This document shows, one piece after another, positions 15,188 through 55,560 of a DNA stretch of 60,654 nucleotides. The stretch lies in assembly GCA_964447465.1 (NCBI GenBank), contig CAYUTR010000001.1:1-60654 (forward strand). The letters are read 5' to 3'. Positions within the stretch are counted from its first letter, which is position 1, and each line of letters starts with the position of its first letter. The notes under the pieces were generated by a model that saw only the letters and a program-made list of their open reading frames with translations, was not told the origin of the DNA and did no database searches. Source of the stretch: an uncultured Chryseobacterium sp. (lineage in GTDB: Bacteria; Bacteroidota; Bacteroidia; Palsa-965). The translations under genes were made by a program, and so were the position numbers.

Positions 15188-15227
15188 GGGAGCTTAGCTC
15201 AGCTGGTTTAGAGCATCTGCCTTACAA
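15188..15227 (+). pseudogene. 5' half of host tRNA-Val(UAC), truncated in the anticodon loop (attL)
   Basis: GGGAGCT-TA-GCTC-AGCTGGTTTA-GAGC-A-TCTGC-CTTACAA, then non-tRNA sequence (ACAGAGTGAGTG). The acceptor strand GGGAGCT is complementary to AGCTCCC at 55553-55559. Confidence 0.85.
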
Positions 15228-15292
15228 ACAGAGTGAGTGAACCATCAAGCCCTTGACAATCAAGGGATCGTTCTTTAGAAAATAATGATGTG

Positions 15293-15308
15293 CATACTTT
15301 GTACATAC
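15293..15308 (+). repeat. arm-type repeat near attL (CATACTTTGTACATAC)
   Basis: Identical 16-mer in the same orientation at 55389..55404. It lies 66 nt inside attL and 115 nt inside attR, so it is a candidate integrase arm-binding site. Confidence 0.6.
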
Positions 15309-15332
15309 TTATCTGCATATTTGCATTCAAAT

Positions 15333-15407
15333 GGGGGCTTAGCTCAGCTGGTTCAGAGCATTTGCCTTACAAGCAAAGGGTCATAGGTTCGAATCCTATA
15401 GCCCCCA
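15333..15407 (+). tRNA. tRNA-Val (anticodon TAC), complete, element-borne
   Basis: GGGGGCT-TA-GCTC-AGCTGGTTCA-GAGC-A-TTTGC-CTTACAA-GCAAA-GGGTC-ATAGG-TTCGAAT-CCTAT-AGCCCCC-A. The cloverleaf folds perfectly by hand. 75 nt, CCA not encoded. Confidence 0.9.
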
Positions 15408-15412
15408 CAAAA

Positions 15413-15438
15413 AGCCGGTCAATTTGATCGGCTTTTTT
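15413..15438 (+). terminator. terminator after the element tRNA-Val
   Basis: AGCCGGTCA-ATT-TGATCGGCT hairpin (one mismatch) followed by TTTTTT. Confidence 0.6.
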
Positions 15439-15619
15439 CTTGCCCTTCCTTCACTTCAAATATACGGCTAAAATGCCATATTGAGCCTGTAAATGGCCTT
15501 AGATCAGCCCATTTGCTTTACCCCCTGCCGTGACCTTATATTAGCCCTCCCAGTCGTCCCCTAGCGACACTTTGAGCTACCAGACTGGGCATACTAGAAC
15601 CCTAATAGAAAATCGTGAT

Positions 15620-15970
15620 ATGGTACATGGAGAGTGGCTCCAGCTTCAGGAATTCCTGTTTGGCTGGAAACAAGGACGAGCGAGAATAACCCTCACCTGT
15701 GGGGAGGCATTTGATTGTGAATTTAAACTGACCTCTGGAATACAACGTTCGGAACAAATTCTCCGCATCGTAGTTATGACCTCGGAAATAAGGATCATTG
15801 AGAATTCCCCACACGTCTGGCGTGCGAAGGAAGGAAGGTTTCCAGTTACTCACCAGGAATTGCCGATCAGTTCGATTTGGGTAATCGAACCGAATGATCC
15901 GCATGGTGAATTGAGATGGGAGCGGAAACGGTTGTTGTTTCCACTTCAGAAGTTCCAACAACTAAATTAG
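15620..15970 (+). CDS. hypothetical protein (strand ambiguous)
   Basis: ORFs 15572..15970(+) and 15602..15961(-) are codon-for-codon antisense to each other. The plus frame uses GGA/GAA/TCG/CCG codons like the confident genes here, while the minus frame is rich in the locally rare TCC and GGT. ATG at 15620; the track's start at 15572 is TTG. Confidence 0.3.
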   Translation: MVHGEWLQLQEFLFGWKQGRARITLTCGEAFDCEFKLTSGIQRSEQILRIVVMTSEIRIIENSPHVWRAKEGRFPVTHQELPISSIWVIEPNDPHGELRWERKRLLFPLQKFQQLN

Positions 15971-16079
15971 TTCCGTTCAAGAAAAAAAGGAATCGGTAAC
16001 GTGACAATGATTGCTTTCGCTGATTAATCGTCATATTTTAGATATTCTAATTCAACTTAAACAACGAAAAAAGAACTAC

Positions 16080-16406: not shown

Positions 16407-16425
16407 TTTATTAAAAACAAACCCA

Positions 16426-16938: not shown

Positions 16939-17514
16939 CTAAAATTGCATTCCCCATGATAGTCCCTTGCTTTTCAAAAATACCTCTACTTCGTCGGCAC
17001 TACCCTTGCCGCAATTCCGAAGTTTCAAAAAGTCTTGTCGAGTAAATGTGACAAGGTGGCCAATCATAAGAACACGCTCATGAGCGCAAATATTTTTTAC
17101 TCTAACGGACAAACTTGTTTCCTGAATTGAAAGAGGAAGCAGCTTACGTATTCTTACTGGTATCCGCTGTTTACGTTCGGCTTTCCGCTCAACAGCCACT
17201 ACTTTTTTTGTAACACTCGCCAACTCATTTCTAGCAGCACTCAATTCTTGAAGAAGATTATTGTGTGAATCTAGTTTTACCCGAATTTCATCCGCTCCAA
17301 TGGTAAATTGTCTGATTGCTCTGTCAAATATTTGCCCAAGACGGTGCGCAGTTAATTGATAGACGCTGTTTAGCTCAGTGAATTTTTTATTATTAACCAA
17401 AACCTCAGTTAGAATTTCATACTCCATCTTGGTCATTAAGTTCCTGCCAAGAAATACTATGTGTGGAAGTATCCTTTCAATGCCCTGCTCCCTCACCGTC
17501 TTTTTGCTGCTCAT
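16939..17514 (-). CDS. DNA-binding protein with RpoA alpha-CTD-like C-terminal domain
   Basis: C-terminal SLSVRVKNICAHERVLMIGHLVTFTRQDFLKLRNCGKGSADEVEVFLKSKGLS matches the helix-hairpin-helix pattern of the RNA polymerase alpha C-terminal domain (LSVRxxNCL...DL...L..IxNFGKKSxxEI). N-terminal HTH-like YEILTEVLVNNKKFTELNSVYQLTAHRLGQIFDRA. Confidence 0.5.
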   Translation of the reverse strand: MSSKKTVREQGIERILPHIVFLGRNLMTKMEYEILTEVLVNNKKFTELNSVYQLTAHRLGQIFDRAIRQFTIGADEIRVKLDSHNNLLQELSAARNELASVTKKVVAVERKAERKQRIPVRIRKLLPLSIQETSLSVRVKNICAHERVLMIGHLVTFTRQDFLKLRNCGKGSADEVEVFLKSKGLSWGMQF

Positions 17515-18221: not shown

Positions 18222-18317
18222 CTGTTAAATAAGTTAGTCAATAAAAAATCTCTACTATCCATGCGCTACAGCGAATTTTCCAGTTGAACACGTCATTTCA
18301 AAGTGAAAGCATACATC

Positions 18318-19271: not shown

Positions 19272-19273
19272 CC

Positions 19274-22200
19274 TTACCGTCGAACAATAAATTTTTGTCT
19301 GCCAACAATATCAGCTCCGATTATTTCCATTATGTACACTCCTTCTGCAATGTCTGCTATGGAAATTACTTCAGTGTGCAAACCAGCAGACTGATTTGAA
19401 GGTACTGAACTTTTCACTATTTGCCCAGTCATCGAGTAAACGTTAATTACAACATCTTCATTGCCTTCAACATTATACGAAACATTCACTATGTCGCTTG
19501 TAGGATTTGGATAAACCTGCATTCCAGAATTTGGAATGTTTTCATCAACACCTACCGCACTTGCATCGTAGGTATACAGGGTAATTCCCACCTTCGTTTG
19601 GTAACTCGGACAAGGAATATCATCGTTAATGAGGATTTGTCCAGACAAATCTGAAATGATATGATACATATAAGTTTTTACTACTGCTTGAGTTGAAGTT
19701 GCAGATACAATTGTACATGCATCATCTCCAATTCCTAAGGTGGAAGTAAAAGGCCATCCGATTGTTCCGCTTGCACGAGTCCACGTAGCGAGAATTTGTT
19801 CATTCGGCCCGATAGAATAATTTAACGTGTGGGTTGAAGAATAAATATCGGCAATGTACCAACCAGATAACCCTTGATATGGTTGGTCTATGAATACATT
19901 GGTTTGAGACGCAATCAAAGTTGGAACCACCGAAAAAGAAGTAACATTTGTAAAAGTTCCGAAATGCCGCACTTTGTAGTAAGGATATTCAATTGCAGCA
20001 AGTGCCGCACCACCATCAATCAGTCCCCATCCCGTCTCATCATCATATCCCGCTGGGAATTTATCAATACAAGTCCTTTCGATGATCTGTTCAACGTCTT
20101 CGTGGCAGAGATTAGAATTCGTAGGGAAGGGTTGATCATAGTAACTCGCCATCAAAGCTGCCAGTCCTGCTACATGAGGTGTTGAAGCAGAAGTGCCATT
20201 AAACCCTCCGTAATTGCCAGTGGTTGACTCCGTAGTATAAACTAACAGATTAGTTGCAGGAGCGATGCAGTCGACACCTTCTTTGGTCATAGCTTGTCCT
20301 GCATCCACTGGATCATTTGGATTTCCATTGTTTGTGCTCTTCCATTCTCCATCGCTGCCCGACCCTCCACAGTTCAGAACAAGATCATCTCGGAAACATG
20401 CGGGATAAATTTTATCGTCAAGGTCCGTGCCTTGATTGTTTGGGTAATTGCCTCGTGCGGCGCACACAATCACACCATTTTTATTTGAAAAATGCACCGC
20501 GTCGTGTATTTCCATAGAAGAATTTGGACCTCCCCAGCTATTGCTCATAACCCATAAACCGTAACCACCTGCGCTCTGAGAAGTTGCTCCTGCAACAAGA
20601 GCATTCGCAATAGTATTCAACGGAGCAAAACTTGACGCATCGCTAATTTTCATGTCATAAAGCTCAACACCCGGATTAGCTGCACTGTTGTCACCTCCTG
20701 CGATACCTGCACCTTGAAACGCATTGTTACTTTTCGCTCCAATAATACCTGCGCATCTTGTGCCATGATTTGAATTGTCGTAAGGAACTCCGAGCGATGT
20801 TCCATTAAGGAAATTGTATCCGCTTAAAGGCACACCACCGAAGTCAGGATGATCTTGATCTATTCCGCTGTCATAGACACCGACTTTCACGAATGACCTT
20901 CCAGTGCTAAAATCCCAAGCTGGATAAATATTTATACCGCCATTTGGATAACCGGGAGACGCATAATAGCTATTCTGACTTGGTATGTAAGGGTCATTCG
21001 GCACGCTATATAGTTCATACAGAAAATTCAACTCCGCTTTCCAAACTTGCGCTTGGCAGCGATTAAGACTATCTGCTGCAACGTGATCTTGTATCCCTGC
21101 TGAGTATAAAACGAATGTTGCCCAAAAATTAGGAATGCGAACATCTTCACCTTGACGCGATATTGAAATAGTATCTGTCGATTTCAACCAAGGGTAAATT
21201 TTAACAAGAGTCCACTTGGTAACGTCAACACCGAGTTTTGCATTCATCTTTGAAATTCCTACTGCATCCACGAACGTAGAGACTTGACCGAACTGAATGG
21301 CGTCGTCATCGACATTGCTCATGATCAATACGCTTGGATCGAACTGAATTACGATTTGATTAGCCGCATGATACACTCCATTTGTATTATCAACTGTGAA
21401 GTTTGTTTGCCAGGTAGAATATTTTATTGTTGTGTATTCTTCAGTCGCTCCTTGTGTCGTCTTGCCACTAACTACAATGTCATTTCCTAACATATTAATT
21501 GCATACGCGCAATCATTTCCATTGCCTGAACCATTGAAATAATTCTCCCACATCTTTGTTCCTGTAGCATCATACATGATCGTCAAATAATCTTTTGCAG
21601 ATTGAGTAGTCATTTCTCCAGTGACCACCACACCTCCGTTCCCATCCGCAATCATTTTATGCACTGCCCCAAAGTCCACAGGATTTGTTGCGGATTGTCT
21701 TCTATCCCATAAAATTGATCCTGATGAGTTGTATTTTAATGTCAAAAAATCTTTTCCTCCGACTACTTTTTTCACATATCCTCCAATGAAAATGTTCCCG
21801 ATAGCGTCGATGTCAAGGCATGTGCCTTCATCGGTTAGTCCTTCGCCATCATAATCATCACTCCATACTAGACTTAATGAACTATTATATTTGATCAACT
21901 GCGTATTACTCTGACCGATCAAATGATTTGTACTTCCTACAACGTAAACATTTCCAAGATTGTCTTTCTCGATTCCACGCGCTTGATCAAGTGCATTTCC
22001 TGATACAGTAAACCGATGGACTGCAAGTTGAGTTCCTGAGTTGCTATACTTCACTGTGGTAATATCAGAGTTCGCCAAGCTGCTCGCGCTGGTTCCGGTA
22101 ACCAAAACATTATTGGTATTGTCAAGTAAAATACCAACTGCTAGATCGGGCATTCCTGCGAAGTTGTAACGCGAGGCCCATTGCTGCACGCCACTGCTGT

Positions 22201-22753
22201 TGTATTTAATTGTTGCATAATCCAGGTTCAACGGACTCCCTGTTCCTTTACTAGCACCGGTTACATATACGTTTCCAGAATTGTCAACGACAATCCCTGA
22301 TGTAACATCATAGCTGTTGCCGGGACCATTGTATGAAACTGACCAGAGTTGCGTTCCTCCTGGACTGTATTTGATCGTCATATAATTGTAACCTTGAGCC
22401 GCGTTAGCATAACTTGCACCTGTAACGTAAACGTTCCCGCTCAGATCAGTTGTAACTGCCGTGCCATAATCGCTGCCATTGGCAGTTCCGTTAAACTGTT
22501 GCTGCCACAGAACTGCTCCGTACTCATCATATTTTACCGTAAGAAAATTACTTCCTTGCCCAAACGCAAGTGTATTGCCGGTCAGGATAATATGATTGTA
22601 GTTATCAGCGACGGATGCCGTAATGTCAACTGTATCAGGAGAGGCATTGGTTGAAACCCATTCCCGGTTATATGCGCACTGAGAATTCGCTGAGAAGGCT
22701 GAACACAGCGCGACAGCAGCTAAGAGAGATTTTAGTTGAGTAAGGTTTGTCAT
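19274..22753 (-). CDS. S8 subtilisin-like serine protease with N-terminal SBBP beta-propeller repeats and T9SS C-terminal domain
   Basis: Repeated SGNVYVTGAS-type SBBP units. Catalytic triad contexts VGVYDSGIDQDHPDF (Asp), NHGTRCAGIIGA (His), GTSASTPHVAGLAALM (Ser). C-terminal VYPNPTSDIVNVSY...GVYIMEI. Confidence 0.85.
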   Translation of the reverse strand: MTNLTQLKSLLAAVALCSAFSANSQCAYNREWVSTNASPDTVDITASVADNYNHIILTGNTLAFGQGSNFLTVKYDEYGAVLWQQQFNGTANGSDYGTAVTTDLSGNVYVTGASYANAAQGYNYMTIKYSPGGTQLWSVSYNGPGNSYDVTSGIVVDNSGNVYVTGASKGTGSPLNLDYATIKYNSSGVQQWASRYNFAGMPDLAVGILLDNTNNVLVTGTSASSLANSDITTVKYSNSGTQLAVHRFTVSGNALDQARGIEKDNLGNVYVVGSTNHLIGQSNTQLIKYNSSLSLVWSDDYDGEGLTDEGTCLDIDAIGNIFIGGYVKKVVGGKDFLTLKYNSSGSILWDRRQSATNPVDFGAVHKMIADGNGGVVVTGEMTTQSAKDYLTIMYDATGTKMWENYFNGSGNGNDCAYAINMLGNDIVVSGKTTQGATEEYTTIKYSTWQTNFTVDNTNGVYHAANQIVIQFDPSVLIMSNVDDDAIQFGQVSTFVDAVGISKMNAKLGVDVTKWTLVKIYPWLKSTDTISISRQGEDVRIPNFWATFVLYSAGIQDHVAADSLNRCQAQVWKAELNFLYELYSVPNDPYIPSQNSYYASPGYPNGGINIYPAWDFSTGRSFVKVGVYDSGIDQDHPDFGGVPLSGYNFLNGTSLGVPYDNSNHGTRCAGIIGAKSNNAFQGAGIAGGDNSAANPGVELYDMKISDASSFAPLNTIANALVAGATSQSAGGYGLWVMSNSWGGPNSSMEIHDAVHFSNKNGVIVCAARGNYPNNQGTDLDDKIYPACFRDDLVLNCGGSGSDGEWKSTNNGNPNDPVDAGQAMTKEGVDCIAPATNLLVYTTESTTGNYGGFNGTSASTPHVAGLAALMASYYDQPFPTNSNLCHEDVEQIIERTCIDKFPAGYDDETGWGLIDGGAALAAIEYPYYKVRHFGTFTNVTSFSVVPTLIASQTNVFIDQPYQGLSGWYIADIYSSTHTLNYSIGPNEQILATWTRASGTIGWPFTSTLGIGDDACTIVSATSTQAVVKTYMYHIISDLSGQILINDDIPCPSYQTKVGITLYTYDASAVGVDENIPNSGMQVYPNPTSDIVNVSYNVEGNEDVVINVYSMTGQIVKSSVPSNQSAGLHTEVISIADIAEGVYIMEIIGADIVGRQKFIVRR

Positions 22754-22829
22754 TTTCGTAGAGGTTGTAGATTAATTGTTTTACTATTCTATTGTGCGCA
22801 ACTATCAGCGTGCGCAAATGGGAGTAAGA

Positions 22830-32593: not shown

Positions 32594-32595
32594 AA

Positions 32596-42648: not shown

Positions 42649-42652
42649 GACT

Positions 42653-43719: not shown

Positions 43720-43731
43720 TGCTCGCAGTGA

Positions 43732-44790: not shown

Positions 44791-44801
44791 GTCTGTAATT
44801 T

Positions 44802-45566: not shown

Positions 45567-45748
45567 TACAAGCGCATGTATTTGCGTGCTGTGGCGAGTA
45601 CCGAAGGTTCGTAGAGCACGATTTGGCGTAAGCGATCAATCTCTTTTGCTGAGAGCTTTTCTGCGAGAACTTTCAGACCGTTTTCTTTCATCTCGACTTC
45701 TGCATCTGTTGGCGCAGTAATTGAGAAATCAGTTTTTTTAGTTGCCAT
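45566..45748 (-). CDS. small hypothetical protein
   Basis: ORF 45566..45790 trimmed to ATG 45748 (MATKKTDFSI). Overlaps the upstream gene by 11 nt and the downstream start by 1 nt. Confidence 0.4.
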   Translation of the reverse strand: MATKKTDFSITAPTDAEVEMKENGLKVLAEKLSAKEIDRLRQIVLYEPSVLATARKYMRL

Positions 45749-46559
45749 CGTCTTGTGATTTTTCAAATGCGGACATATATGTTGATTCAATCAATTCAGG
45801 ATTCTCTGTAAGCACGGTGAGAAGTTGACTGACAAGACCACGTTGTACCTTGTCGAATCCTTTGAATAGCCCGGTGAAGAATTTGTATTCTTCATATTCG
45901 CGCTCCGAAATGGCTATTTGAGTTTCATCATTACTACTCGCCGAGTTTGCTTCTGCTTTGCGCTCTTCTTGTTGTTCATTTTCTGCTGTGCCTGATAACG
46001 GGCCGTCTTTGGGCTTGGGGCCTAAGAAGCGATCAAGGGCTTCGCGTCCCAATTCAAGCAACACATTCGTTTGCCCGTTTTCGTCTTGCAGCTTTATCAG
46101 TTCCCCATTTTGCTTTTCCAATTCGTCATTTCTTTTAAGGAGGATGTCGAGTTGTTGCCGCAAGATTTGGTTGTCGCGCTGCACCTTGTCGTGATTATGC
46201 TTTAAGGTGACTTGCTCAACTTGCTTTTGTACCCTGTCTTCAAAAGATACTGTGGGGCCTTCTTCAATACCATGAAAAGTTTGACCGTTCAATTGTTTTG
46301 GACCGTCGAAATAAAAACAGGTATTGTTGCGGTTGCGTGTATGGCCGATATATTCAGAAATGGTAATCCACTTTGTTGTCGGCCCAATCAGATCGAAAAT
46401 GCTCTGAAACAAAGTCGCGTCGGTGGTCTTTGGAATTATCTCCAGATCGTCGATAGTGACGGCGTAGGAGATGGGTTCTCCAATGCGAGAGTGGTTCTCC
46501 AATCGAATGCGGATCGCCTCGACTTTTGCGTTGTCGTATGGAATCTTTTGGAAGCTCAT
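45738..46559 (-). CDS. coiled-coil hypothetical protein
   Basis: 273 aa with a central heptad-rich segment (QILRQQLDILLKRNDELEKQNGELIKLQDE) and an acidic region. 4-nt overlap with the upstream gene. Confidence 0.5.
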   Translation of the reverse strand: MSFQKIPYDNAKVEAIRIRLENHSRIGEPISYAVTIDDLEIIPKTTDATLFQSIFDLIGPTTKWITISEYIGHTRNRNNTCFYFDGPKQLNGQTFHGIEEGPTVSFEDRVQKQVEQVTLKHNHDKVQRDNQILRQQLDILLKRNDELEKQNGELIKLQDENGQTNVLLELGREALDRFLGPKPKDGPLSGTAENEQQEERKAEANSASSNDETQIAISEREYEEYKFFTGLFKGFDKVQRGLVSQLLTVLTENPELIESTYMSAFEKSQDDGN

Positions 46560-46888
46560 CTTTTCTGTTTTTTATGCTGTGGAATAACCTGGATAAACAG
46601 CACACTTGCCGTTGCTCCTGTGTCGTTCGATACCCGAATGATTCCGCTATGCTCGTGTTGCTGAATATTTATCACTGCGTCTCCCAGGTTAAAAACCCCT
46701 CGCTCTGATTCCACTTTTATATCCAAAACTTCTGGTTCAATGAACAGCATGAGTTGGTTGTATGCTTTGAAAGTTGTTGCGGCTTTATCAGCAAGTCTTA
46801 TCTGCCGATACCTTACCACATAGCGTTCTCCGAAACCTAACTCCCGCATCCGACGCGGGATATAATCCAAAGCGAAGGCGAGGTTCAT
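46556..46888 (-). CDS. small beta-rich hypothetical protein
   Basis: 110 aa, with 4-nt overlaps on both sides. Confidence 0.45.
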   Translation of the reverse strand: MNLAFALDYIPRRMRELGFGERYVVRYRQIRLADKAATTFKAYNQLMLFIEPEVLDIKVESERGVFNLGDAVINIQQHEHSGIIRVSNDTGATASVLFIQVIPQHKKQKR

Positions 46889-47328
46889 GGCTGTTGCATT
46901 TTTAGGCGGAGATAAATCCGCACGGTGTAGTCAATGTTATCGGTCAGTAGTACACCTACACGATCTTCGTAGTAACCATCTATCAATGTGCTATCAACGG
47001 GTTGGTAAGTGTCAAGCATCTCATAGTTTGTTCTCCACCACCATTGTTGCGTGTCTATATATTTTTCACCGACTTTTTCCCATGCTTCAACTTTGAATGA
47101 AGCGTAAAGTGTGTGAGCAAAAAATCTCTCACCTTTATCGGAAACAAAAAGGCGTAAGTAACCCGCCTCTCGTTGAATCTTAGGTTGACCACCGACATTG
47201 ATAAAGTGTTTGTCGCACGTCACCGCAATCCCGGTAATGCTTTCTGCATTTTCAGGCAGTATAATCTGAAAGAGTTTCTTTTGAAATCTCTCCTTGATCG
47301 ACAACGTATGGACTATGAACTTTTCCAT
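46885..47328 (-). CDS. small beta-rich hypothetical protein (paralogue-like of 47332..47742)
   Basis: ENAESITGIAVTCDKH and YTVRIYLRL echo KNADKIIGVAVSSNRD and MFLYVYSTL of the neighbouring gene. Confidence 0.45.
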   Translation of the reverse strand: MEKFIVHTLSIKERFQKKLFQIILPENAESITGIAVTCDKHFINVGGQPKIQREAGYLRLFVSDKGERFFAHTLYASFKVEAWEKVGEKYIDTQQWWWRTNYEMLDTYQPVDSTLIDGYYEDRVGVLLTDNIDYTVRIYLRLKMQQP

Positions 47329-47331
47329 GAA

Positions 47332-47742
47332 TTATTCAGTTGGTTGCACGGCGAGCGTGCTATACACGTAGAGAAACATTTTGTGCGGGAGAAATTCTAC
47401 CACATCGGCGTTTCCTGAATCGGTGTAGATCATCTCTACTTTACGATTTCCCGGTTCAATTCGCCCTAATCTGTAGTAGCGTTGATTGGGCGGAACGTTA
47501 AGACCGCTCATCAGGTACTTGCTTTCGTAGTTCTCTGGGAAGAATTCTTCGTCGTTAATTTTGATAGCCTGGCTTCCCCGGTAGTATGCGATGTCGTCAC
47601 GATTGGAGCTGACGGCCACACCAATTATTTTGTCGGCGTTTTTGTCCACTTCAAATGATCCTTTATGGACTTCTCCTTCGACAGTTATGTCAAGTGAGAA
47701 AACTTCTTTGATTATTTTATTCTGCTTAGCCATTTTATTCAA
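47332..47742 (-). CDS. small beta-rich hypothetical protein
   Basis: 136 aa. See the paralogue note on 46885..47328. Lies downstream of a strong hairpin. Confidence 0.45.
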   Translation of the reverse strand: MNKMAKQNKIIKEVFSLDITVEGEVHKGSFEVDKNADKIIGVAVSSNRDDIAYYRGSQAIKINDEEFFPENYESKYLMSGLNVPPNQRYYRLGRIEPGNRKVEMIYTDSGNADVVEFLPHKMFLYVYSTLAVQPTE

Positions 47743-47763
47743 GCCTTAGAAAGTTTAAGGAAG

Positions 47764-47796
47764 GGCCGTCCCGTCATTGCGGGACGGCCTTTTTTT
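47764..47796. terminator. strong GC hairpin between 47808..48557 and 47332..47742
   Basis: GGCCGTCCCG-TCATTG-CGGGACGGCC (10-bp perfect stem). The T-tract (TTTTTTT) is on the plus-strand side, so it is a canonical terminator only for antisense (plus) transcription. On the minus strand it could act as an attenuator or stabiliser. Confidence 0.5.
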
Positions 47797-47807
47797 CCTT
47801 CTGCCAG

Positions 47808-48557
47808 TTACGGCGTGGTGATAGTACCGTTCAGCTCAACCATAATGTGAGCGTTAGCGGCTACCCCATCCATCGAACCGAGTTCCACCACAAACTCGAT
47901 AAGTTCCTCATCGCGGATCATGCGTGGGTTATGCAGTTTCCAATAACCCAGGCTAACCGTTTGGTTATTGTCGGTTGCGAAAACCCGGTTGCTTTTACCT
48001 TCAGGAATAATCTGACGCTTGTTGGCTTTCAGATAAAATTCCCCGTTGGCAATTGCAGGAACCGCTTTGATGCTGCCGAAGTCGATGACTTTGATCTTGT
48101 CATCGGTAAGGTCTGCCGCAGTTCCTACAAGCATTGTGATTGAACTCACCAGGAGAACCATTCCTTTCGGAAGTTTTCCCTGTGCAATCGAAGTCCCTCC
48201 GGTTACTTTTGCATCACTGGTCTCAAAAATTTTAACCGTTTTGCTCGTAACACGCTTCACACCACGAATGTTGTAATCCGCAAGGCGAAGTTTTCCGGCG
48301 ATAACTTCTTCCCGGATTCCATCAGGAAGCTCTTTGAAGTGCTTCTCGAATTCCGCACGGGAACCAATTGAAGGCGGCAAACTTTTCGCTACGCGGGCCA
48401 CCGCTTGCGCCTTCTGGATCGGATTCAGGCCCGACAGGTAAGACAGGAATCCTCCGCCAAGTCCGGCGTCGATACCAAGCAGCTCACCTGCATTGTTGTA
48501 CTCGGCGAGTACATTCTCCCAATTCTCGTTCATTGTTGAAACGATTAGGAGTTGCAT
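47808..48557 (-). CDS. hypothetical protein, beta-rich C-terminal half (candidate structural protein)
   Basis: 249 aa, with an alternative ATG at 48533 (MNENWENV). No family recognised. Position before the strong hairpin suggests high expression. Confidence 0.45.
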   Translation of the reverse strand: MQLLIVSTMNENWENVLAEYNNAGELLGIDAGLGGGFLSYLSGLNPIQKAQAVARVAKSLPPSIGSRAEFEKHFKELPDGIREEVIAGKLRLADYNIRGVKRVTSKTVKIFETSDAKVTGGTSIAQGKLPKGMVLLVSSITMLVGTAADLTDDKIKVIDFGSIKAVPAIANGEFYLKANKRQIIPEGKSNRVFATDNNQTVSLGYWKLHNPRMIRDEELIEFVVELGSMDGVAANAHIMVELNGTITTP

Positions 48558-48618
48558 CCGGACCTCGCTTTTTGGGTGCGGGCCTTATTGGATGCTCAAC
48601 TGTTTTTTCTGTCAGTTA

Positions 48619-49236
48619 TCAGATGATGTGAGGCAGTTCATCAAGTTCTACCCCGACACCGTTCACCGGCGCGTAAGCTCCACCGTCGGCAGCAGTCCTG
48701 TTCTTGGCTTCGTATTCGATACCATCGGAAAGGATTTGCTGATCGAAGGAAGTAAGCCTGTCGAGCGTTGCTTTTTCTACTCCCGGATCAAGTCCGTTCA
48801 CAGTAGGTGTGTCGGTTTCTTCTGCGGGTGCATCAGCAGGTTTGTTCTTACCCATGAATTTGTTGATGAAGAACTTTTCTTTAAGCATTTCGATATAGTC
48901 CTTCGACCGTGCTTTTCCTGCTTCGTACTCTGCTTTGAGACTGAAACCGGAATCCGCTGCTACCCGTAGTGAAGATTGTGTATCACATGGAGCGGCAATA
49001 CATCCGATTCCCAACGCTGAAAGCCACCGTTGACCTGTTGCGTGTCCAACAACGCTGAGTGTCAAACCAACAGGTATAGACCATTTTCCCAGAAATGAAC
49101 CCCCATAGCCACCGCCTACACCAGCACCTACATCAACCAGGGTGTTGGTGGCCACTTCAGTCCAGTCCTTTGTTTTCGGTTTTATCACCGCTGCTTTCCA
49201 CGGCTCTTTGGTCAGCAGTTTCTTGGCACTTTGCAT
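48619..49236 (-). CDS. glycine-zipper membrane-associated hypothetical protein
   Basis: VDVGAGVGGGYGGSFLGKWSIPVGLTLSVVGHATG hydrophobic/glycine-rich segment. Confidence 0.45.
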   Translation of the reverse strand: MQSAKKLLTKEPWKAAVIKPKTKDWTEVATNTLVDVGAGVGGGYGGSFLGKWSIPVGLTLSVVGHATGQRWLSALGIGCIAAPCDTQSSLRVAADSGFSLKAEYEAGKARSKDYIEMLKEKFFINKFMGKNKPADAPAEETDTPTVNGLDPGVEKATLDRLTSFDQQILSDGIEYEAKNRTAADGGAYAPVNGVGVELDELPHII

Positions 49237-49271
49237 TTTCGTTTCTTTTATGTTTTTCTTGGGGTTGGAGC

Positions 49272-51065
49272 TTATTTCAGGCGGCTCAACCTTAAATCCC
49301 GCAGGATTTTGTCACCTTTATTTCCTTTGCTTTTCTTGCTCTGGTCATTGATTTGTCCACGAGCAGCCTTAGGAATACCATTTGTGGTTTCCGCCCTGCT
49401 ACCACCGTTGCCTTTGCCTTTCTTCTTAGCGAAAAACTTTTTGTAAACGATCACACCTCCGACAACTGCGGCAACTGTAACAGTTCCGATAATCAATGGT
49501 TTTTTGTTTTTGACCATCCAATCCTTCGCCTTATCAAAAAACGAGGCTTCTGAATCTGGAGCAGGGTCGCCTCCCGATTGATCTCCATCTGAACTATCAG
49601 CGGAAGGTTCATCTTCATTCCGTTCAGTGCTGTAATCACCCTGATCTTCTCCGCTCGGTGCGGTTTCATCCGGTGCGGAATCTCCAGCTTGTTGGTCGAG
49701 TGCATCCATTCCAGCGTCGGAGCCTGGTTCACCTTTGCCAAACAGATCTCCGATGTTTTTCAAGATGCCAGCAATCGTTGCCAGAAGACCGCTTGCTACA
49801 GCTGTAACAGCGGCAGTTTCTACAATACCCAAGCCGTGCAACTCAGCGGACTTTTCTTCGGGAATTTCATCGGAGTACATCTGTGATCCGATGATCTGTT
49901 CCACCGTATTGTTTCCCGTCATTCCCAAGCCAGAGAGAGCATACCCGGAGAGGGTAACTTTATTATCCTGGTTGCCTTTTCCTGTAAGAATTGCTTCCTT
50001 CAGGTTTTCAGGTTTGCCCCCGGCGTTGAAAAATATTTTCTCCAGTTTAGCGCGTAACTTTTTGTAACGCTCAAAACGTTTTGGGTTTACTCCACGTTTC
50101 TGTGCTTCTGCATCGGTTAAATAACCATAGCGAAGCTGACCAGCCACACCAAAAAGATTTAGTTTCATCCCTGCCAGCAGACCAAGCCGCAATGCAGTCG
50201 TAGCCGGATTGATTCGGTTAATGACGTGAACACCTTTGCTGATTACCGTCCCGACCTTCCTCACCGTTTCTTTCACGTTCTCTTTGATGTTCTGTGTCGC
50301 GGTCTTGACGTTCTCCTTCACGGTTTGCACTTTTTCCTTCACGTTCTGGATTTTCTCCTTCACGTTCTGGAACAAGTTCAGTTTACCTACCGATTCATCT
50401 GTTGCCGATGGAAGCTGACAGGAAAGCATATCCTGCGCGTCGATGCTCATGCCGCCATTGCGAGCGAATTCATCAGGATCAATGCCATCTAAAAACTCCA
50501 AATCCATGTCTATGTTTTTTATTTTTACATACGGGTGCTCGCGGTTGAAGTAGGGTAGTACAGCGTCAATAGTGATCTCCTTCCCACCGGAAGGAACAAC
50601 TACGTACACATGCCCATAACTTCCGGACACTTCGTCGTATGATGCAATTCTGAATTGGTGCGGAATCCTCAATACAGAGAGAACACAGCTTGTGAAAAAA
50701 CTAAAGCAATCACAGTCTCCGATCCGATCACTCCAAAGTCTGCGTACACTTCTTACCTGTTCCTTGCCCGTCTGATCGGGATTATATGCAATGTGATCGG
50801 TAAGGAATTTCCAGATGTTATAGCACGTATCTCCAACCTTGTTATCAATGTTGCGCATTGCCGCCGCAATCCTCTGCGCCTGGAACTTGTAATCGCGCAC
50901 CTTGGACGGGAGCATCTTCATTGTGTCAGCGAGCGTTGCGCCTTTCTTTATGGATTCATTTATTCCGGATGCCGGATCGAATAAACAATTGTAGGCAGCA
51001 CCATCTTCCTTGATGCCCCTTTGTTCACCTGTCCCGTCTTTTTTTATACCACTCAGGAATTCCAT
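49272..51065 (-). CDS. transglutaminase-like cysteine protease domain protein with heptad-repeat region and C-terminal TM/basic tail
   Basis: ORF 49272..51101 trimmed to ATG 51065 (MEFLSGIKK), which removes the overlap with the upstream gene. RIGDCDCFSFFTSCVL...GHVYVVV...IDAV is a Cys-His-Asp transglutaminase core. NVKEKIQNVKEKVQTVKENVK heptads. TM LIIGTVTVAAVVGGVIVY. Confidence 0.55.
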   Translation of the reverse strand: MEFLSGIKKDGTGEQRGIKEDGAAYNCLFDPASGINESIKKGATLADTMKMLPSKVRDYKFQAQRIAAAMRNIDNKVGDTCYNIWKFLTDHIAYNPDQTGKEQVRSVRRLWSDRIGDCDCFSFFTSCVLSVLRIPHQFRIASYDEVSGSYGHVYVVVPSGGKEITIDAVLPYFNREHPYVKIKNIDMDLEFLDGIDPDEFARNGGMSIDAQDMLSCQLPSATDESVGKLNLFQNVKEKIQNVKEKVQTVKENVKTATQNIKENVKETVRKVGTVISKGVHVINRINPATTALRLGLLAGMKLNLFGVAGQLRYGYLTDAEAQKRGVNPKRFERYKKLRAKLEKIFFNAGGKPENLKEAILTGKGNQDNKVTLSGYALSGLGMTGNNTVEQIIGSQMYSDEIPEEKSAELHGLGIVETAAVTAVASGLLATIAGILKNIGDLFGKGEPGSDAGMDALDQQAGDSAPDETAPSGEDQGDYSTERNEDEPSADSSDGDQSGGDPAPDSEASFFDKAKDWMVKNKKPLIIGTVTVAAVVGGVIVYKKFFAKKKGKGNGGSRAETTNGIPKAARGQINDQSKKSKGNKGDKILRDLRLSRLK

Positions 51066-51069
51066 GACT

Positions 51070-51531
51070 TCACAGATTGATTGTTTGTTCGTAAGGCACA
51101 CTTACAATTTGTCCTGCTACTTCAACCGGTACAGTTGCCCGCACCAGAATTGGAGCGGAGCCTTGTTGCGTTTGCAGAATATGAAAGAGGTCAACTGCCA
51201 GAGTAGGCAGGGAAAAAATGCTGACTTCAACCATGATCTCTTTCAAATTCATTTGCTGAAATGGGTCAAGCGTGTAATCGAAATTTTCCACGTTGGATGT
51301 TCCGATAATCTGCTTTTTATATTCCAGCGTTACCAATGGGTGCTTGAACTTGTAGGCATTCTTAGTGGGATTTTTAACCGTTGCCACCACCGCGATGGTA
51401 AGTTTGCTGAAACTGAGTTTATGAACCCGTCCGCGGGTAGAAACAATGAGTTTGTCGCTACCCTTCGCCCAACCAACTGCTTTGCCAATCAACAAAGCCG
51501 CCGCACCGATGCCGATAATTTCAAGTATCAT
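51070..51531 (-). CDS. membrane-anchored LEA_2/WHy-like beta-sandwich protein (tentative)
   Basis: N-terminal TM ILEIIGIGAAALLIGKAVGW followed by a ~120-aa beta-rich domain (TIAVVATVKNPTKNAYKFKHPLVTLEY) that resembles LEA14/NDR1-type folds. Confidence 0.35.
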   Translation of the reverse strand: MILEIIGIGAAALLIGKAVGWAKGSDKLIVSTRGRVHKLSFSKLTIAVVATVKNPTKNAYKFKHPLVTLEYKKQIIGTSNVENFDYTLDPFQQMNLKEIMVEVSIFSLPTLAVDLFHILQTQQGSAPILVRATVPVEVAGQIVSVPYEQTINL

Positions 51532-51800
51532 GGCTTTACGTTTTCTAATTTGTCGCAGCGTGAGGAGAGTCTCCTAACCTGTCGTTGTAAATAACCAACC
51601 CGATGGTCAATGGTATGATCAAAATTTTGGGAGAGGGAAACGTGCGTGTTGTGTTCTGAATAAAGTGTATTAACACGCTCTACCATCTGTTTGAAATCCT
51701 TATGCAAGTCCTTCAGGAAGTACCCGATAATCAAAAACATCACGCTCAAAAAGGAAAGCAGAACGCTGTTTACGATGAGAAGAATTTGAACCTTGTCCAT
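51528..51800 (-). CDS. small single-pass membrane protein
   Basis: ORF 51528..51869 trimmed to ATG 51800 (MDKVQILLIVNSVLLSFLSVMFLIIGYF). Confidence 0.4.
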   Translation of the reverse strand: MDKVQILLIVNSVLLSFLSVMFLIIGYFLKDLHKDFKQMVERVNTLYSEHNTHVSLSQNFDHTIDHRVGYLQRQVRRLSSRCDKLENVKP

Positions 51801-51940
51801 AATTGAGTATTTTATTTGTAGGCCTTGATGCAGATTGCTATTACTCTTATTACGCCCTATTAAATGCACCGTTATCGGTATAGTAGAGGACTGTTTTGAA
51901 ATGATGGATTATGTAGAGGAATGTTGAATTGCATAGCAAA

Positions 51941-52147
51941 TCACATTTTCTTATTTCCTCTCAGAATGTTCCAGATCCGTTTCAAGTCGTCTTTAGTATG
52001 CTCACAGTATTCTTCAATGAGCAGATTCTTTTTCCCCTCTACTATCGCCTGGCGAATAGACAGGTGGGTTCTGGCTGCAGAACTGTAATCCTGACCGGTG
52101 AGCTTCATCAGATCATGGATGGTCATATAGAAAGCATTGCCTTTCAT
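51941..52147 (-). CDS. small HTH DNA-binding protein (Bacteroidota mobile-element type)
   Basis: MTIHDLMKLTGQDYSSAARTHLSIRQAI...IEEYCEHT resembles the short HTH proteins found beside integrases of Bacteroidota elements (I.DIq.LtG.S.rtA.r....Ik......it..EFceY). Confidence 0.45.
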   Translation of the reverse strand: MKGNAFYMTIHDLMKLTGQDYSSAARTHLSIRQAIVEGKKNLLIEEYCEHTKDDLKRIWNILRGNKKM

Positions 52148-52158
52148 AGTCAGTTCGG

Positions 52159-52611
52159 TTAGAGTTGGTTGATGTCAGGAGGGCTAGGCAAGTGCCTCTT
52201 TCTTAGTTGAACCGGTTTAATGCGGCCACGGTCCCGATGTTCACCCATTTTCAGGATGTAACAAACACAATCAAGTATCCCGTTCAGCTCCAGTAGCACA
52301 AGGGCATTTCCCAGGATCAATTTGTGGTCACATAGTTGTATGGCTCTTAATAATTGCCCTTCTGTCCACGAATATTCTTCAGTAAGGCCTTCGAGAGACT
52401 TGACAGCGTTGAATTCCTCTAGGAAACCAGGGTACGCTTTCCTGATTGCCTTCTTGATTTTAACATGGCAGATGTATGGACTGATAATTTCTCTCCTATC
52501 GAAAGGTTCAGGGTTTATCTCAGGTGAATCATCCTCGCATCCATCTTCACTGATGAAATAATTTTCTCTGAAAATTTCCCATTTCTCGTTTTTGTTTTTT
52601 GAGGTTTCCAT
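52159..52611 (-). CDS. hypothetical protein
   Basis: 150-aa ORF, co-directional with its neighbours. No motif recognised. Confidence 0.4.
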   Translation of the reverse strand: METSKNKNEKWEIFRENYFISEDGCEDDSPEINPEPFDRREIISPYICHVKIKKAIRKAYPGFLEEFNAVKSLEGLTEEYSWTEGQLLRAIQLCDHKLILGNALVLLELNGILDCVCYILKMGEHRDRGRIKPVQLRKRHLPSPPDINQL

Positions 52612-52624
52612 TGCTCTAAATTGT

Positions 52625-52894
52625 TTAGTGAGTTTTTGTAATGTGTTTCATTAAAAACCTGTTGATGCTTTGCCGGGAATACTTGATAATTCTCCCGTGC
52701 TGACTGAACAAGATTTCTCCGGAATCGCGCAACTGTTGCAGCTTCGATTTGCTTTTGATTCCTAAGAGTTGTTTGGCGTCCTCTGGCGACAGCCATTCTT
52801 CCTGCTTGACTTCTGCTATGGCATCCATCAGCATTTTCCGAAACTCCAGCACTAGTTGCTGGTATGCTTCATCCTGGAACACGATCAGTTTCAT
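52625..52894 (-). CDS. excisionase-family HTH (HTH_17/MerR-like) protein
   Basis: WLSPEDAKQLLGIKSKSKLQQLRDSGEILFSQHGRIIKYSRQSINRFL is the typical helix-turn-helix plus wing of Xis-type proteins. First gene of the long minus-strand block. Confidence 0.55.
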   Translation of the reverse strand: MKLIVFQDEAYQQLVLEFRKMLMDAIAEVKQEEWLSPEDAKQLLGIKSKSKLQQLRDSGEILFSQHGRIIKYSRQSINRFLMKHITKTH

Positions 52895-52968
52895 TGTTTG
52901 ATTTGTTAAATCCTACAACAAAGCTGGCTTGGATAAAAAGTAAAAAGAAGGTACAACGGGGACGGAAA

Positions 52969-52982
52969 GGGGTATATACCCC
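52969..52982. promoter_or_regulatory. perfect 14-bp palindrome in the divergent promoter region
   Basis: GGGGTATATACCCC, between the Xis-like gene (start 52894) and the plus-strand 53176 gene. Confidence 0.4.
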
Positions 52983-53175
52983 CAGCCAAAATGCAGTGTT
53001 GCAATTCGTTACAGCGATGAGATTCTGAAATGTTTTCTTATTTCGAAAACCGCTTTAACATTTTTGTTTGAGTTCTTAACAAACTTTTTACACACATCTG
53101 CGTTATATAAACAAGTTCTTGGACTTCCTGACATCCGAAGTTTTTCAGACCCCCCTACGTGAAAAATAAGTGATT

Positions 53176-53979
53176 ATGATTCCCGAACAATTCAAGGGTA
53201 TCAGGTTCATCGAAATTGCAAGTAGGATTAAGGCAAAAAAGATAGAGAGTACAGAAAAGAAAGGTGTAAAGTATTGTACTGTATATAACAGCCACAATAC
53301 GGTGAGGGACTTCGTGCGAGAGATAAAAGCCCTTTTAATTGCCTTTAAGTATGAGCTTCTAATGTTGCCTTTGATCTACTCAATCGCTGGTAACCGACAG
53401 ACCTTTATACACCATCTCCACGAACACTTCTTCGTGGTCAACGAAAGATTGGAAATCTACCAGTCGTTTCTGAAAGCGGAATTTCCATACGTTTCGCATA
53501 TAACTGCTCTTAATGAGCAGGATATTTTTCCTCGCTTGTTTTCAAAGGAAACACATCCGAGTGTTAAGGACTATGAAAATCACAAAATCCATTATATCCA
53601 TTACTACCACAAGTACATTGTAAATTGTGCTATTGAAGAAATAGAATGCTACTCGCAGAACGAGGGATTTGTTTTTAATGGTCAGGCCTTAAATGGTAAG
53701 GAACGAAAGACGGAAAAATTGCAGCATCATTTCAAGACAGATCTTTCAGTAGACCAATTGGCGTACCTGTTCCAAATTTTCACCGATGTTTTTTGCAAGG
53801 GGGTAAATAAAACGGAACTGGCGAAATTTCTTTCAGCTACGTTCCAAACTACGAAGGCATCAAATCCGAGTTATATCCAAATTAAAAAAGCCTTTTACGA
53901 TGTTGATGATCATACTCAACAAGTCGTAAAAGGCTTGATACTGGAAATGCTGAAACGTGTACAGCAGTCTAAGCGGTGA
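53176..53979 (+). CDS. RteC-like regulatory protein (tentative)
   Basis: First ATG at 53176 (the track start 53170 is GTG). C-terminal LSVDQLAYLFQIFTDVFCKGVNKTELAKFLSATFQT...VVKGLILEMLKRV loosely matches the RteC C-terminal winged helix. Convergent 11-nt overlap with the integrase. Confidence 0.3.
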   Translation: MIPEQFKGIRFIEIASRIKAKKIESTEKKGVKYCTVYNSHNTVRDFVREIKALLIAFKYELLMLPLIYSIAGNRQTFIHHLHEHFFVVNERLEIYQSFLKAEFPYVSHITALNEQDIFPRLFSKETHPSVKDYENHKIHYIHYYHKYIVNCAIEEIECYSQNEGFVFNGQALNGKERKTEKLQHHFKTDLSVDQLAYLFQIFTDVFCKGVNKTELAKFLSATFQTTKASNPSYIQIKKAFYDVDDHTQQVVKGLILEMLKRVQQSKR

Positions 53980-55327
53980 TCCGCATATTTATTTCATCGG
54001 TTTCTTCTTTGTCAAAACTATCTAGGTAAATCTGCGTAGTCGTGATTTTTTCGTGTCCCAATCCTTCGCTGATTAACCCAAGCGATATTCCCATTTTCTT
54101 GGCAATATCAGCCCAAGCGTGTCGCGTCACATAGGACGTTAATTTCTGTGAAATCTTACAATCAGCCTGGATAATACTTAGGTAATCGTTATGAGTACCG
54201 CGGGTTTGTTCAGCGATCCGCGAAATTTCATTTCCATCGTCTTTGAGATCGTTAGGCAGGATAGGAAATACATAATCATCGGCACCTTTATCCTTCATGT
54301 AATGGCCTAAGATGGCAGCGGCTTCCGGAGTCAACTGGATATTGTAGTAACGTCCGTTTTTACTTCGCTTGTATTCAAGCCTTCCATTTGCGATCTGCTT
54401 GCACCGAAGTTTAGCAATGTCAATCCAGTTCATCCCTTTCAGATTGAACATGAAAAGAAAGTAGTTCTTATTGTGCCAAATGGGTGAAAACTCCTCATAC
54501 TGCATCGCCCGAATCGTTTGAATGGCTTCTTTGCGTAATCCTCGTTTAGCCGTTTTCTCCGATGGGATCGAAATGAAATCAAAAGGTGTCCTGAAATCTT
54601 TAGGTAACAGCTTTTCGTCACGTTCCTTCATTGCCTTGCCAATGATTGCGCTAATAGCCCGTAAACGCGCGCCAATGCCATTTTGTTTGTGCTTTAAGAC
54701 ATCTTTCAGATGCAGCATAAATTCGTCCAGTAGAGCAGGGGTTATCTCCGTTATCAGGACGTCTGTGGTCAGATCAAGGTTGTAATTTTCACCCTCACCC
54801 CATTTCCGTTTGGGAATATCACTTTCCGAGCCGCGGAGATAATACAGGAACTGAGTTATCCCGTCCTTATACCACATCGCTGTTTTACGTTTTTGGTGCT
54901 GCCGTTTCAGGTTGATCCATTTTTGAGCGTACTCTCCAAGCATTGCCCCACCGCGTATTTTTTTCTGTTTAGTTGGTTCAATATTCAGTTGCTCTGCTAA
55001 TTGATTTTGTTGCTCGATTAACTCACGGTTAATTTCTGCTTCAAACAGGTCTTTGACCTCAGCGGGTGAAAGAGTCTCCAAGATAGGGTCAGCTTTCAAA
55101 AGGTAGGCTTGGGCCGTTAACCATTTGCGCTGAACTTCGTTGTTATGCCTTTTAAAGTTTGGGTAACCTGTGATCTGCTCCTTTTCTTCATCCCATTGCT
55201 TAGTTGTTAGGCGCAGTCCTAAACCGATATAAACCTGTTGACGTTTGTGGGTTATGCGTATTGTTAGCGGACATTGAGGGTACTTACTAATTCTCCGTTT
55301 GTCGAGGCCGAGAAATAAGGTTGCCAT
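53969..55327 (-). CDS. tyrosine site-specific recombinase / integrase
   Basis: N-terminal Bacteroidota arm-binding type (LTIRITHKRQQVYIGLGLRLTTKQWDEE), SAM-like core, catalytic C-terminus with LTSYVTRHAWADIA, GLGHEKITTTQIYL (R..H..R..Y context). 190 nt from attR. Confidence 0.9.
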   Translation of the reverse strand: MATLFLGLDKRRISKYPQCPLTIRITHKRQQVYIGLGLRLTTKQWDEEKEQITGYPNFKRHNNEVQRKWLTAQAYLLKADPILETLSPAEVKDLFEAEINRELIEQQNQLAEQLNIEPTKQKKIRGGAMLGEYAQKWINLKRQHQKRKTAMWYKDGITQFLYYLRGSESDIPKRKWGEGENYNLDLTTDVLITEITPALLDEFMLHLKDVLKHKQNGIGARLRAISAIIGKAMKERDEKLLPKDFRTPFDFISIPSEKTAKRGLRKEAIQTIRAMQYEEFSPIWHNKNYFLFMFNLKGMNWIDIAKLRCKQIANGRLEYKRSKNGRYYNIQLTPEAAAILGHYMKDKGADDYVFPILPNDLKDDGNEISRIAEQTRGTHNDYLSIIQADCKISQKLTSYVTRHAWADIAKKMGISLGLISEGLGHEKITTTQIYLDSFDKEETDEINMRITA

Positions 55328-55388
55328 AATTCTGATTTTATACTGTTAACTGATAATTTTACGTCCTGTTAGATGCGGGGTTCGTGTA

Positions 55389-55404
55389 CATACTTTGTAC
55401 ATAC
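55389..55404 (+). repeat. arm-type repeat near attR (CATACTTTGTACATAC)
   Basis: Identical to 15293..15308. Here it is preceded by TGTA, giving TGTACATAC-TT-TGTACATAC. Confidence 0.6.
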
Positions 55405-55518
55405 ATTGTAAAGGCTCAAACAATCTCTGAAAAGCCTTAACCGCCCGAAACCCTGATTTTATTCAGAAATTCGCACTTTAGAAGATTTTAGGAAGTATCA
55501 AAAGACTTGAAATTCTGT

Positions 55519-55560
55519 CTTACAAGCAGAGGGTCACAGGTTCGACTCCTGTAGCTCCCA
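55519..55560 (+). pseudogene. 3' half of host tRNA-Val(UAC) (attR)
   Basis: CTTACAA-GCAGA-GGGTC-ACAGG-TTCGACT-CCTGT-AGCTCCC-A. GCAGA pairs with TCTGC at 15216-15220 and AGCTCCC with GGGAGCT at 15188-15194. Confidence 0.85.

Follow-up and report, generated by a model that had tools for sequence, protein, structure and literature searches.

When an element inserts into a transfer RNA (tRNA) gene and rebuilds that gene at neither end, where does the host obtain the lost tRNA? This question is raised by a 60,654-nucleotide stretch of DNA (here, the window; contig CAYUTR010000001.1, assigned to an uncultured Chryseobacterium sp.), in which an integrative element of 40.3 kb interrupts a chromosomal tRNA-Val(UAC) gene within its anticodon loop. 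We estimate a probability of about 0.8 that this element, from a Flavobacteriales-like member of the Bacteroidota, has split the host gene and provides a cognate replacement tRNA in trans. The evidence consists of two gene halves that reassemble perfectly, a related genome with the uninterrupted site, an integrase gene beside one junction with paired repeats on both attachment (att) arms, and an intact tRNA-Val(UAC) gene just inside one end of the element.

The split gene and its empty site

The host tRNA-Val(UAC) gene exists as two halves, at 15188–15227 (5′) and 55519–55560 (3′). At the left junction (attL), the 5′ half reads GGGAGCTTAGCTCAGCTGGTTTAGAGCATCTGC-CTTACAA (GGGAGCT...TCTGC-CTTACAA), and element DNA that starts with ACAGA (15228–15232) and reads ACAGAGTGAGTG follows directly. 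At the right junction (attR), TCTGT (55514–55518) precedes CTTACAA-GCAGA...AGCTCCCA in the 3′ half, the full reading from 55514 to 55560 being TCTGT-CTTACAA-GCAGAGGGTCACAGGTTCGACTCCTGTAGCTCCCA. When 14900–15227 and 55526–55900 were joined, ARAGORN returned one perfect tRNA-Val(tac) cloverleaf with the acceptor stem GGGAGCT/AGCTCCC and the anticodon stem TCTGC/GCAGA; across the whole window, neither ARAGORN nor Rfam called a tRNA at attL or attR. The pattern CTGYCTTACAARCAG matches the window at attL and attR only, plus the internal tRNA gene at two mismatches (chance expectation 0.33; three matches reached in 0 of 100 shuffles). A first-pass annotation, made from the sequence alone, had proposed one tRNA-Val gene split in the anticodon loop and regenerated at neither junction. 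Both proposals hold, and its junction coordinates and sequences were exact when re-read from the window.

An intact tRNA-Val gene beside folC had also been predicted for related genomes that lack the element. We searched FolC relatives, taking one genome per species, and found this arrangement in the best match, a Flavobacteriales metagenome-assembled genome (L001; FolC 89% identical), in which an outer-membrane beta-barrel protein (OMP) gene, an intact tRNA-Val(tac) gene, a terminator and folC follow one another uninterrupted. With 15228–55525 taken out, both flanks of the window align collinearly with L001 (BLAST), and the joined locus aligns with it end to end, through promoter, gene and terminator; the empty-site genome therefore has the expected junction, and the two halves form a single locus. 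The tRNA genes of the window and L001 differ at positions 7 and 66, and because this difference is compensatory (T–A versus A–T), both window halves belong to one ancestral gene. The host promoter-like region upstream contains what we take to be a likeness of the Bacteroidota −7 box TAnnTTTG. Other contigs with OMP homologues end inside the tRNA gene or carry different genes.

The tRNA-Val gene is convergent with folC in the window, in L001 and in L090, the host of a related element described below. It is co-directional with folC and about 90 bp downstream of it in more distant genomes (L002–L005 and L007), and about 590 bp downstream in L006, which has an adjoining tRNA-Val(GAC) gene too; the differing orientations imply a local inversion of the tRNA between lineages. 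A further fragment of a tRNA-Val 3′ end lies in the interval between the tRNA and folC, about 100–150 bp downstream of the former: it reads AATCCTGTTGCTCCCA in L001 (around 11417–11432, minus strand) and has decayed to AATCCTGTTC in the window (55654–55663), and L002 has two copies (11446–11473 and 11614–11642). These fragments look like older scars of earlier integrations at T-loop or acceptor sites, which would make tRNA-Val a recurrent hot spot. Three independent short-read assemblies of close host relatives (L092, L094 and L218) end inside the 5′ half, at about positions 25–35, which is compatible alike with repeated tRNA-Val copies and with insertion polymorphism at the site.

Integrase, att sites and related elements

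With the overlap counted once, the element spans 40,298 bp (removal of 15228–55525 gives the empty site); parts of it have a G+C content of 0.39–0.43, versus about 0.46 in the flanks. The site of the element itself (attP), reconstructed from the two junctions, has the core TCTGT-CTTACAA-ACAGA, a perfect dyad as previously proposed, versus TCTGC-CTTACAA-GCAGA in the chromosomal site (attB). Identity between the two extends over 7 bp without mismatch, or over 22 bp with 3 mismatches (TCTGyCTTACAArCAGAGkG). Because host and element differ directly beside the loop at both junctions (C/T and G/A), both strand exchanges probably lie within the 7-bp anticodon loop, as the first-pass annotation had concluded. 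The same annotation described attP as a mimic of the anticodon arm. An 18-mer that contains the attP core (TCTGTCTTACAAACAGAG) has five exact matches in IMG/VR (L081–L085), and as all five fall in tRNA-Val(TAC) genes identified by ARAGORN, the core is identical to a natural variant of the tRNA-Val anticodon arm. The mimicry is thus real at the level of sequence, but it is not a separate phenomenon: likeness to the anticodon arm is the expected look of any anticodon-centred att site.

Both arms of attP carry repeats. The motif TGTRCATAC has only four exact copies in 60.6 kb, arranged as two tandem pairs, one per att arm, with the P pair 115–134 bp to the left of the core and the P′ pair about 60–80 bp to its right; a second motif, TCGYWCTTTAGAA, has a single copy on each arm and none elsewhere in the window. 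The integrase gene starts 190 bp from attR. Its assignment to the tyrosine integrases, made in the earlier annotation, is borne out by the domains of the protein (Table 1) and by catalytic residues that are invariant in the alignment (R262, R402, H403, H425 and Y434). An Arm-DNA-bind_5 domain, a catalytic tyrosine and repeats on both arms are features of heterobivalent integrases of the lambda Int or IntDOT type, and the arm repeats and core together have the predicted attP anatomy of such an enzyme. An HTH_17 protein is a candidate excisionase; its gene occupies the same position in two related elements (L086 and L089), and an unannotated divergent open reading frame (ORF) lies between it and the integrase gene.

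Relatives of the integrase occur in three independent assemblies (87, 69 and 61% identical), and the next match is only about 35% identical. In all three, element DNA gives way to CTTACAA-GCAGAGGGTCAC... approximately 190 bp upstream of the integrase gene, with attR continuing as CTTACAA-GCAGAGGGTCACAGGTTCGA..., the 3′ half of tRNA-Val, and the crossover boundary is the same throughout. The TCTGT half-site is present in two of the three, with CCTTG instead in L089. The tandem arm repeat differs from element to element, both copies changing together (TGTGCATAG twice in L089 and TGTGCATAC twice in L090). The element in L090 also lies beside folC, in a host whose folC has a nucleotide identity of only about 68%. 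Because the same attR junction recurs in three independent relatives, site specificity is a property of the clade, rather than an accident or an assembly artefact.

No tRNA gene was called in the context of either outgroup integrase (about 35% identical), and scans of viral contigs with the integrase, the attL junction and the internal tRNA returned no related element. A gapped pattern search of metagenomes recovered tandem tRNA-Val pairs of the normal kind and nothing else; the anticodon stem was paired in all 130. The contig of one relative, followed through its 2071-amino-acid backbone protein, showed no junction before its end about 0.5 kb past the PRTase-CE cargo gene.

The element-borne tRNA-Val(UAC) gene

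The absence of a regenerated gene had been viewed in the first-pass annotation as an unexplained oddity; this part of its account overlooked an intact tRNA-Val(UAC) gene at 15333–15408, 105 bp inside attL. This gene is the single ARAGORN call in the window and the only tRNA found in the element by ARAGORN and Rfam. We assign it to the element because it lies beyond the P′ arm repeats and because L001 has no second gene at this place. It and the split gene agree in 67 of 75 bases; the eight differences include three base-pair changes, all compensatory (4:69 from A–T to G–C, 28:42 from C–G to T–A and one T-stem pair from C–G to T–A). The nearest sampled relatives match it at 71 of 75 positions. 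The 16 nucleotides upstream (ATATTTGCATTCAAAT) are 81% identical to the promoter/leader of the host gene (ATATTTGCACCCCAAT), and the promoter-like box in this region, which lies just downstream of the arm-type repeats and may partly overlap the repeat region, probably drives the gene. Together with the hairpin and T-run that follow, these features suggest a complete transcription unit that is under selection and of Bacteroidota type.

The anticodon stem of the element tRNA is TTTGC/GCAAA, versus TCTGC/GCAGA in the split gene, and was found in none of the 41 distinct, mostly Bacteroidota-type tRNA-Val(UAC) sequences that we sampled. The change alters both core-type half-sites and keeps the same 7-bp overlap; one speculation is that it could make the element tRNA immune to the integrase of its own element.

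Two other origins of the internal gene were rejected. The first was that it is the regenerated target, composed of the host 5′ half and a 3′ half brought by the element. The displaced 3′ half pairs perfectly with the half at 15188 (A4–T69 and C28–G42) and with the internal gene only with wobbles, and the upstream promoter that is homologous to L001 is that of the half at 15188. The second was a tandem pair of host tRNA-Val genes: L001 has a single gene, and the P′ repeats separate the 5′ half from the internal tRNA.

We propose that the tyrosine integrase recombined the attP core (TCTGT-CTTACAA-ACAGA) with the anticodon stem-loop of the host tRNA-Val(UAC) gene on the chromosome, with both strand exchanges within the 7-bp loop. 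Because attP has only a short core in common with the gene, the host tRNA is reduced to two dead halves, one at attL and one at attR. The unit of promoter-like box, gene and terminator in the element most likely supplies the lost function in trans; its tRNA is presumably expressed and, by analogy with known phages (see below), needed. The element is probably still mobile; its excised circle would carry the junction ...GAAATTCTGTCTTACAAACAGAGTGAGTG..., and the repaired attB would read ...GCATCTGCCTTACAAGCAGAGGGTC....

Several points weigh against this proposal. Tandem tRNA-Val genes are common in Bacteroidota, and with any other tRNA-Val(UAC) copies in this host, from which we have a 60.6-kb contig, the element tRNA need not be essential. 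A terminator-like hairpin (15250–15266) separates the element tRNA from the host promoter and makes read-through from that promoter uncertain. Excision, the circular form and expression of the element tRNA are predictions from the sequence. For the three relatives the junction was read at attR, and the replacement tRNA is known from the window element alone.

The explanation that competes best, although we consider it unlikely, is that the split is tolerated through other tRNA-Val(UAC) genes of the host and that the element tRNA is ordinary cargo, for example for codon supply or for evasion of tRNA-targeting defences. In its favour are more than 120 metagenome contigs with tandem tRNA-Val(TAC) genes, assemblies of host relatives that break inside tRNA-Val in a manner compatible with repeated copies, and a host in which further copies may exist beyond the contig. 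Against it, the element tRNA has the same isoacceptor identity and anticodon as the disrupted gene, follows the P′ arm directly at 105 bp from the crossover and is the only tRNA in the element; relatives show a single tRNA-Val gene at the locus.

We give very little credence to a history of decay, in which attP once carried a regenerating 3′ half of the tRNA and the present attL reflects degeneration after integration, the element being immobile. Such descent from a tRNA fragment would be compatible with the imperfect identity of attP and attB beyond the loop (TCTGyCTTACAArCAGAGkG) and with the occurrence of the core 18-mer as the natural anticodon arm of other tRNA-Val genes, but attL retains no likeness to a tRNA 3′ half beyond the core, the integrase has its full length and its invariant catalytic residues, and the arm sites are intact on both arms. 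The T beside the loop on the P side is common to two of three independent relatives, and is hence no local mutation. A chimeric assembly at a repeated tRNA sequence, conceivable in a contig that apparently derives from an uncultured genome given that tRNA genes are frequent points of misassembly, is the least credible explanation of all, as the longest stretch in which the internal tRNA and the 5′ half agree exactly is 17 nucleotides, the same attR junction occurs in three independent assemblies and both flanks are collinear with L001.

Table 1 Positions of the features of the tRNA-Val(UAC) locus, the integrative element and its backbone in the window
Feature	Positions	Strand	Evidence or remarks
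Host outer-membrane beta-barrel protein gene, left flank	14364–15029	+	Pfam OMP_b-brl_2; homologue beside intact tRNA-Val in L001
Host tRNA-Val promoter-like region (TTTGCA ... TATATTTG)	15144–15175	+	Promoter scan 15144–15172; conserved in L001
5′ half of host tRNA-Val(UAC), through anticodon loop	15188–15227	+	Sequence, joined cloverleaf, L001 alignment
attL core TCTGC-CTTACAA-ACAGA	15216–15232	+	7-bp overlap 15221–15227
Element-specific DNA between the two overlap copies, 40,291 bp	15228–55518	.	No homology to L001 empty site
P′ arm hairpin CCCTTGACAATCAAGGG, then motif TCGTTCTTTAGAA	15250–15280	+	Terminator-like match; motif elsewhere only at 55471–55483
P′ arm-type direct repeats TGTGCATAC / TGTACATAC, 11 bp apart	15289–15308	+	2 of 4 exact window matches
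Promoter-like box CATATTTGCA and leader of element tRNA	15316–15332	+	13/16 bases (81%) as in host 15168–15183
Element-borne intact tRNA-Val(UAC), putative replacement copy	15333–15408	+	ARAGORN; Rfam RF00005 15333–15407, 75.7 bits
Terminator hairpin and T-run after element tRNA	15409–15437	+	14-bp inverted repeat, 93% complementary
C5 DNA methylase / Strawberry-notch helicase fusion, 2071 amino acids, backbone	36230–42445	−	Pfam
Conserved backbone operon, ~17 ORFs	42994–52611	−	Syntenic, 83–87% nucleotide identity, in L086 and L219
GH108 lysozyme	42994–43719	−	In backbone operon
Protein with peptidoglycan-binding-like stretch (by eye)	43732–44790	−	In backbone operon; weak PHROG endolysin match
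609-amino-acid coiled-coil protein	49272–51101	−	In backbone operon
HTH_17 protein, candidate excisionase / directionality factor	52625–52894	−	Pfam HTH_17, E = 4e-8
Tyrosine integrase, 452 amino acids, arm-binding N terminus	53969–55327	−	Pfam Phage_integrase, Arm-DNA-bind_5, Phage_int_SAM_5
P arm-type direct repeats TGTACATAC ×2, 11 bp apart	55385–55404	+	Remaining 2 of 4 exact matches
P-arm motif TCGCACTTTAGAA, second arm-motif type	55471–55483	+	Motif scan, comparison of relatives
attR core TCTGT-CTTACAA-GCAGA	55514–55530	+	7-bp overlap 55519–55525
3′ half of host tRNA-Val(UAC), anticodon loop to discriminator base	55519–55560	+	Sequence, joined cloverleaf, L001 alignment
Host tRNA-Val terminator hairpin	55568–55593	+	Inverted repeat; position kept in L001
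Host folC-like Mur-ligase gene, right flank	55703–56995	−	Pfam Mur_ligase_M, Mur_ligase_C; 89% identical in L001

Known systems, backbone and cargo

Integration that breaks a host tRNA gene and brings its own replacement would follow, by analogy, the logic of tRNA-dependent lysogeny. This strategy was established by experiment in 2024 with mycobacteriophage Fionnbharth (Guerrero-Bustamante and Hatfull 2024, PMC10865867). The same authors inferred it for several clusters of actinobacteriophages and raised the question of its wider distribution; examples include Fionnbharth/K4, Cluster L, Gaia and the Gordonia CQ2/DL phages (PMC10865867). The window element likewise has an attB that overlaps a tRNA gene, a core that is too short to rebuild it and a cognate tRNA inside the insert. 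It further resembles the actinobacteriophages in its tyrosine integrase with an arm-binding N terminus, its paired arm-type sites, an attB at the anticodon region, and a very short common core (8–17 bp in the phages; 7 bp without mismatch here) that leaves no tRNA rebuilt at attL or attR. It differs in host (Bacteroidota rather than Actinomycetota), in integrase architecture (Arm-DNA-bind_5 / SAM_5), in target (tRNA-Val(UAC) rather than Lys, Ile2 or Leu tRNAs) and in having no recognisable phage genes. Moreover, the Fionnbharth tRNA overlaps an unrelated gene elsewhere in the genome, whereas the presumed replacement tRNA here lies directly against attP. Prophage Lj965 of Lactobacillus johnsonii and the Mesorhizobium-phage-like prophages of Sinorhizobium meliloti are reported to leave the tRNA unrebuilt and to carry a cognate tRNA (PMC10865867, PMC11476347 and PMC12429752). 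Going by these descriptions, they share the logic outside the Actinomycetota, and are recognisable prophages of Bacillota and Alphaproteobacteria.

Anticodon-centred integration sites in tRNA genes (tDNA) are reportedly the class 'A' sites of Williams (2002). Islands at such sites resemble the window element in their crossover within the 7-nucleotide anticodon loop, their use of the stem as inverted core-type sites and the position of the integrase gene beside one junction. In these islands, attP carries the 3′ portion of the tRNA, so that an intact gene is restored and a displaced fragment remains (PMC4383910). By contrast, attP here keeps the stem-loop only and neither junction holds a working gene: attL runs on into ACAGAGTGAGTGAACC..., in which there is no tRNA 3′ half. 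Among the elements of the same phylum, NBU1/NBU2 and CTnDOT (with integrases IntN1 and IntDOT) are similar in broad integrase type and in their arm-type sites. The target of NBU1 is the 3′ end of tRNA-Leu, and CTnDOT integrates at sites outside tRNA genes, a point on which PMC10865867 also remarks. Unlike CTnDOT, the window element has no detectable CTnDOT-type tra genes, and its nearest integrases outside the clade are only about 35% identical.

In the limited collection of literature that we searched, we found no report of tRNA-replacing integration in Bacteroidota or in non-phage elements. The novelty lies in the phylum, the type of integrase and the backbone, which resembles neither phages nor conjugative elements of the CTnDOT type. 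It is a tentative suggestion, which we hold to be somewhat doubtful, that this is a case, maybe the first, of tRNA-dependent integration by a non-phage element (or an unknown virus), belonging to an undescribed Bacteroidota family with a 'dark-matter' backbone and a tRNA within its att module. A break-the-tRNA, bring-your-own solution in Bacteroidota, in another integrase lineage and with no recognisable phage, would argue that the strategy is general to integrative elements and has evolved repeatedly. There are practical consequences too: programs that locate islands by looking for an intact tDNA and a displaced fragment will place such elements wrongly, and a split tRNA gene beside an intact near-copy should not be taken for a tandem gene pair. 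The cassette of integrase gene, attP and tRNA (about 55330–55530 joined to 15221–15440, plus int) is a compact candidate for an integration vector in Flavobacteriales-like bacteria.

The 10 kb nearest the integrase form a tight operon in which many ORFs have transmembrane segments; apart from the proteins listed in Table 1, the roughly 17 ORFs had no match in Pfam, PHROGs, NCBIfam or PDB sequence searches. Searches of the element with Pfam, PHROGs and NCBIfam turned up no capsid, portal, terminase or tail family, leaving lysozyme-like genes as the sole matches of this kind; as much of the backbone is beyond annotation, the element may still be an unknown type of virus. No CTnDOT-type tra operon (TraG/J/K/M/N), relaxase or coupling protein was found among the backbone ORFs tested with Pfam and NCBIfam. 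When two backbone proteins were compared with phage records by tblastn, one had no match and the other a weak partial match; a single-sequence AlphaFold model of a 249-amino-acid ORF was unusable (predicted local distance difference test score (pLDDT) of 34). The operon may encode the transfer or virion functions of a Bacteroidota mobile-element family that has yet to be described. The 2071-amino-acid methylase/helicase fusion is at least 90% identical in L219 and 44.5% identical on plasmid pPP10 of Persicobacter psychrovividus, where the adjoining 521-amino-acid ATPase is represented by two ORFs; what Persicobacter plasmids have in common with the element is limited to the helicase, the ATPase and parts of the 609- and 352-amino-acid proteins. 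Within the 609-amino-acid ORF, three 21-bp tandem repeats (50297–50369) encode a heptad-like VKEKxQN repeat, and the N terminus of the protein has, by eye, a transglutaminase-like Cys/His/Asp arrangement with no family match.

The left half of the element is cargo. A module of a PRTase-CE gene, a NADAR gene and a 344-amino-acid ORF (30801–33630, plus strand) is conserved in L219 (18384–21177); PADLOC matches it to PRTase_III-A (a retron-type effector) and PDC-M42C, which makes it a candidate for anti-phage defence. The cargo also includes two large proteins with type IX secretion system (T9SS) Por_Secre_tail domains (19274–22753 and 23880–27974, both on the minus strand): one is an S8 subtilase that has SBBP repeats, the other contains a PKD domain. 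The mobile element would therefore deliver secreted proteins to its host. Near the left end lies a gene for a 191-amino-acid protein with an RNA polymerase alpha C-terminal domain (16939–17514, minus strand), which has one match, at 46% identity, among 5.8 billion clustered sequences.

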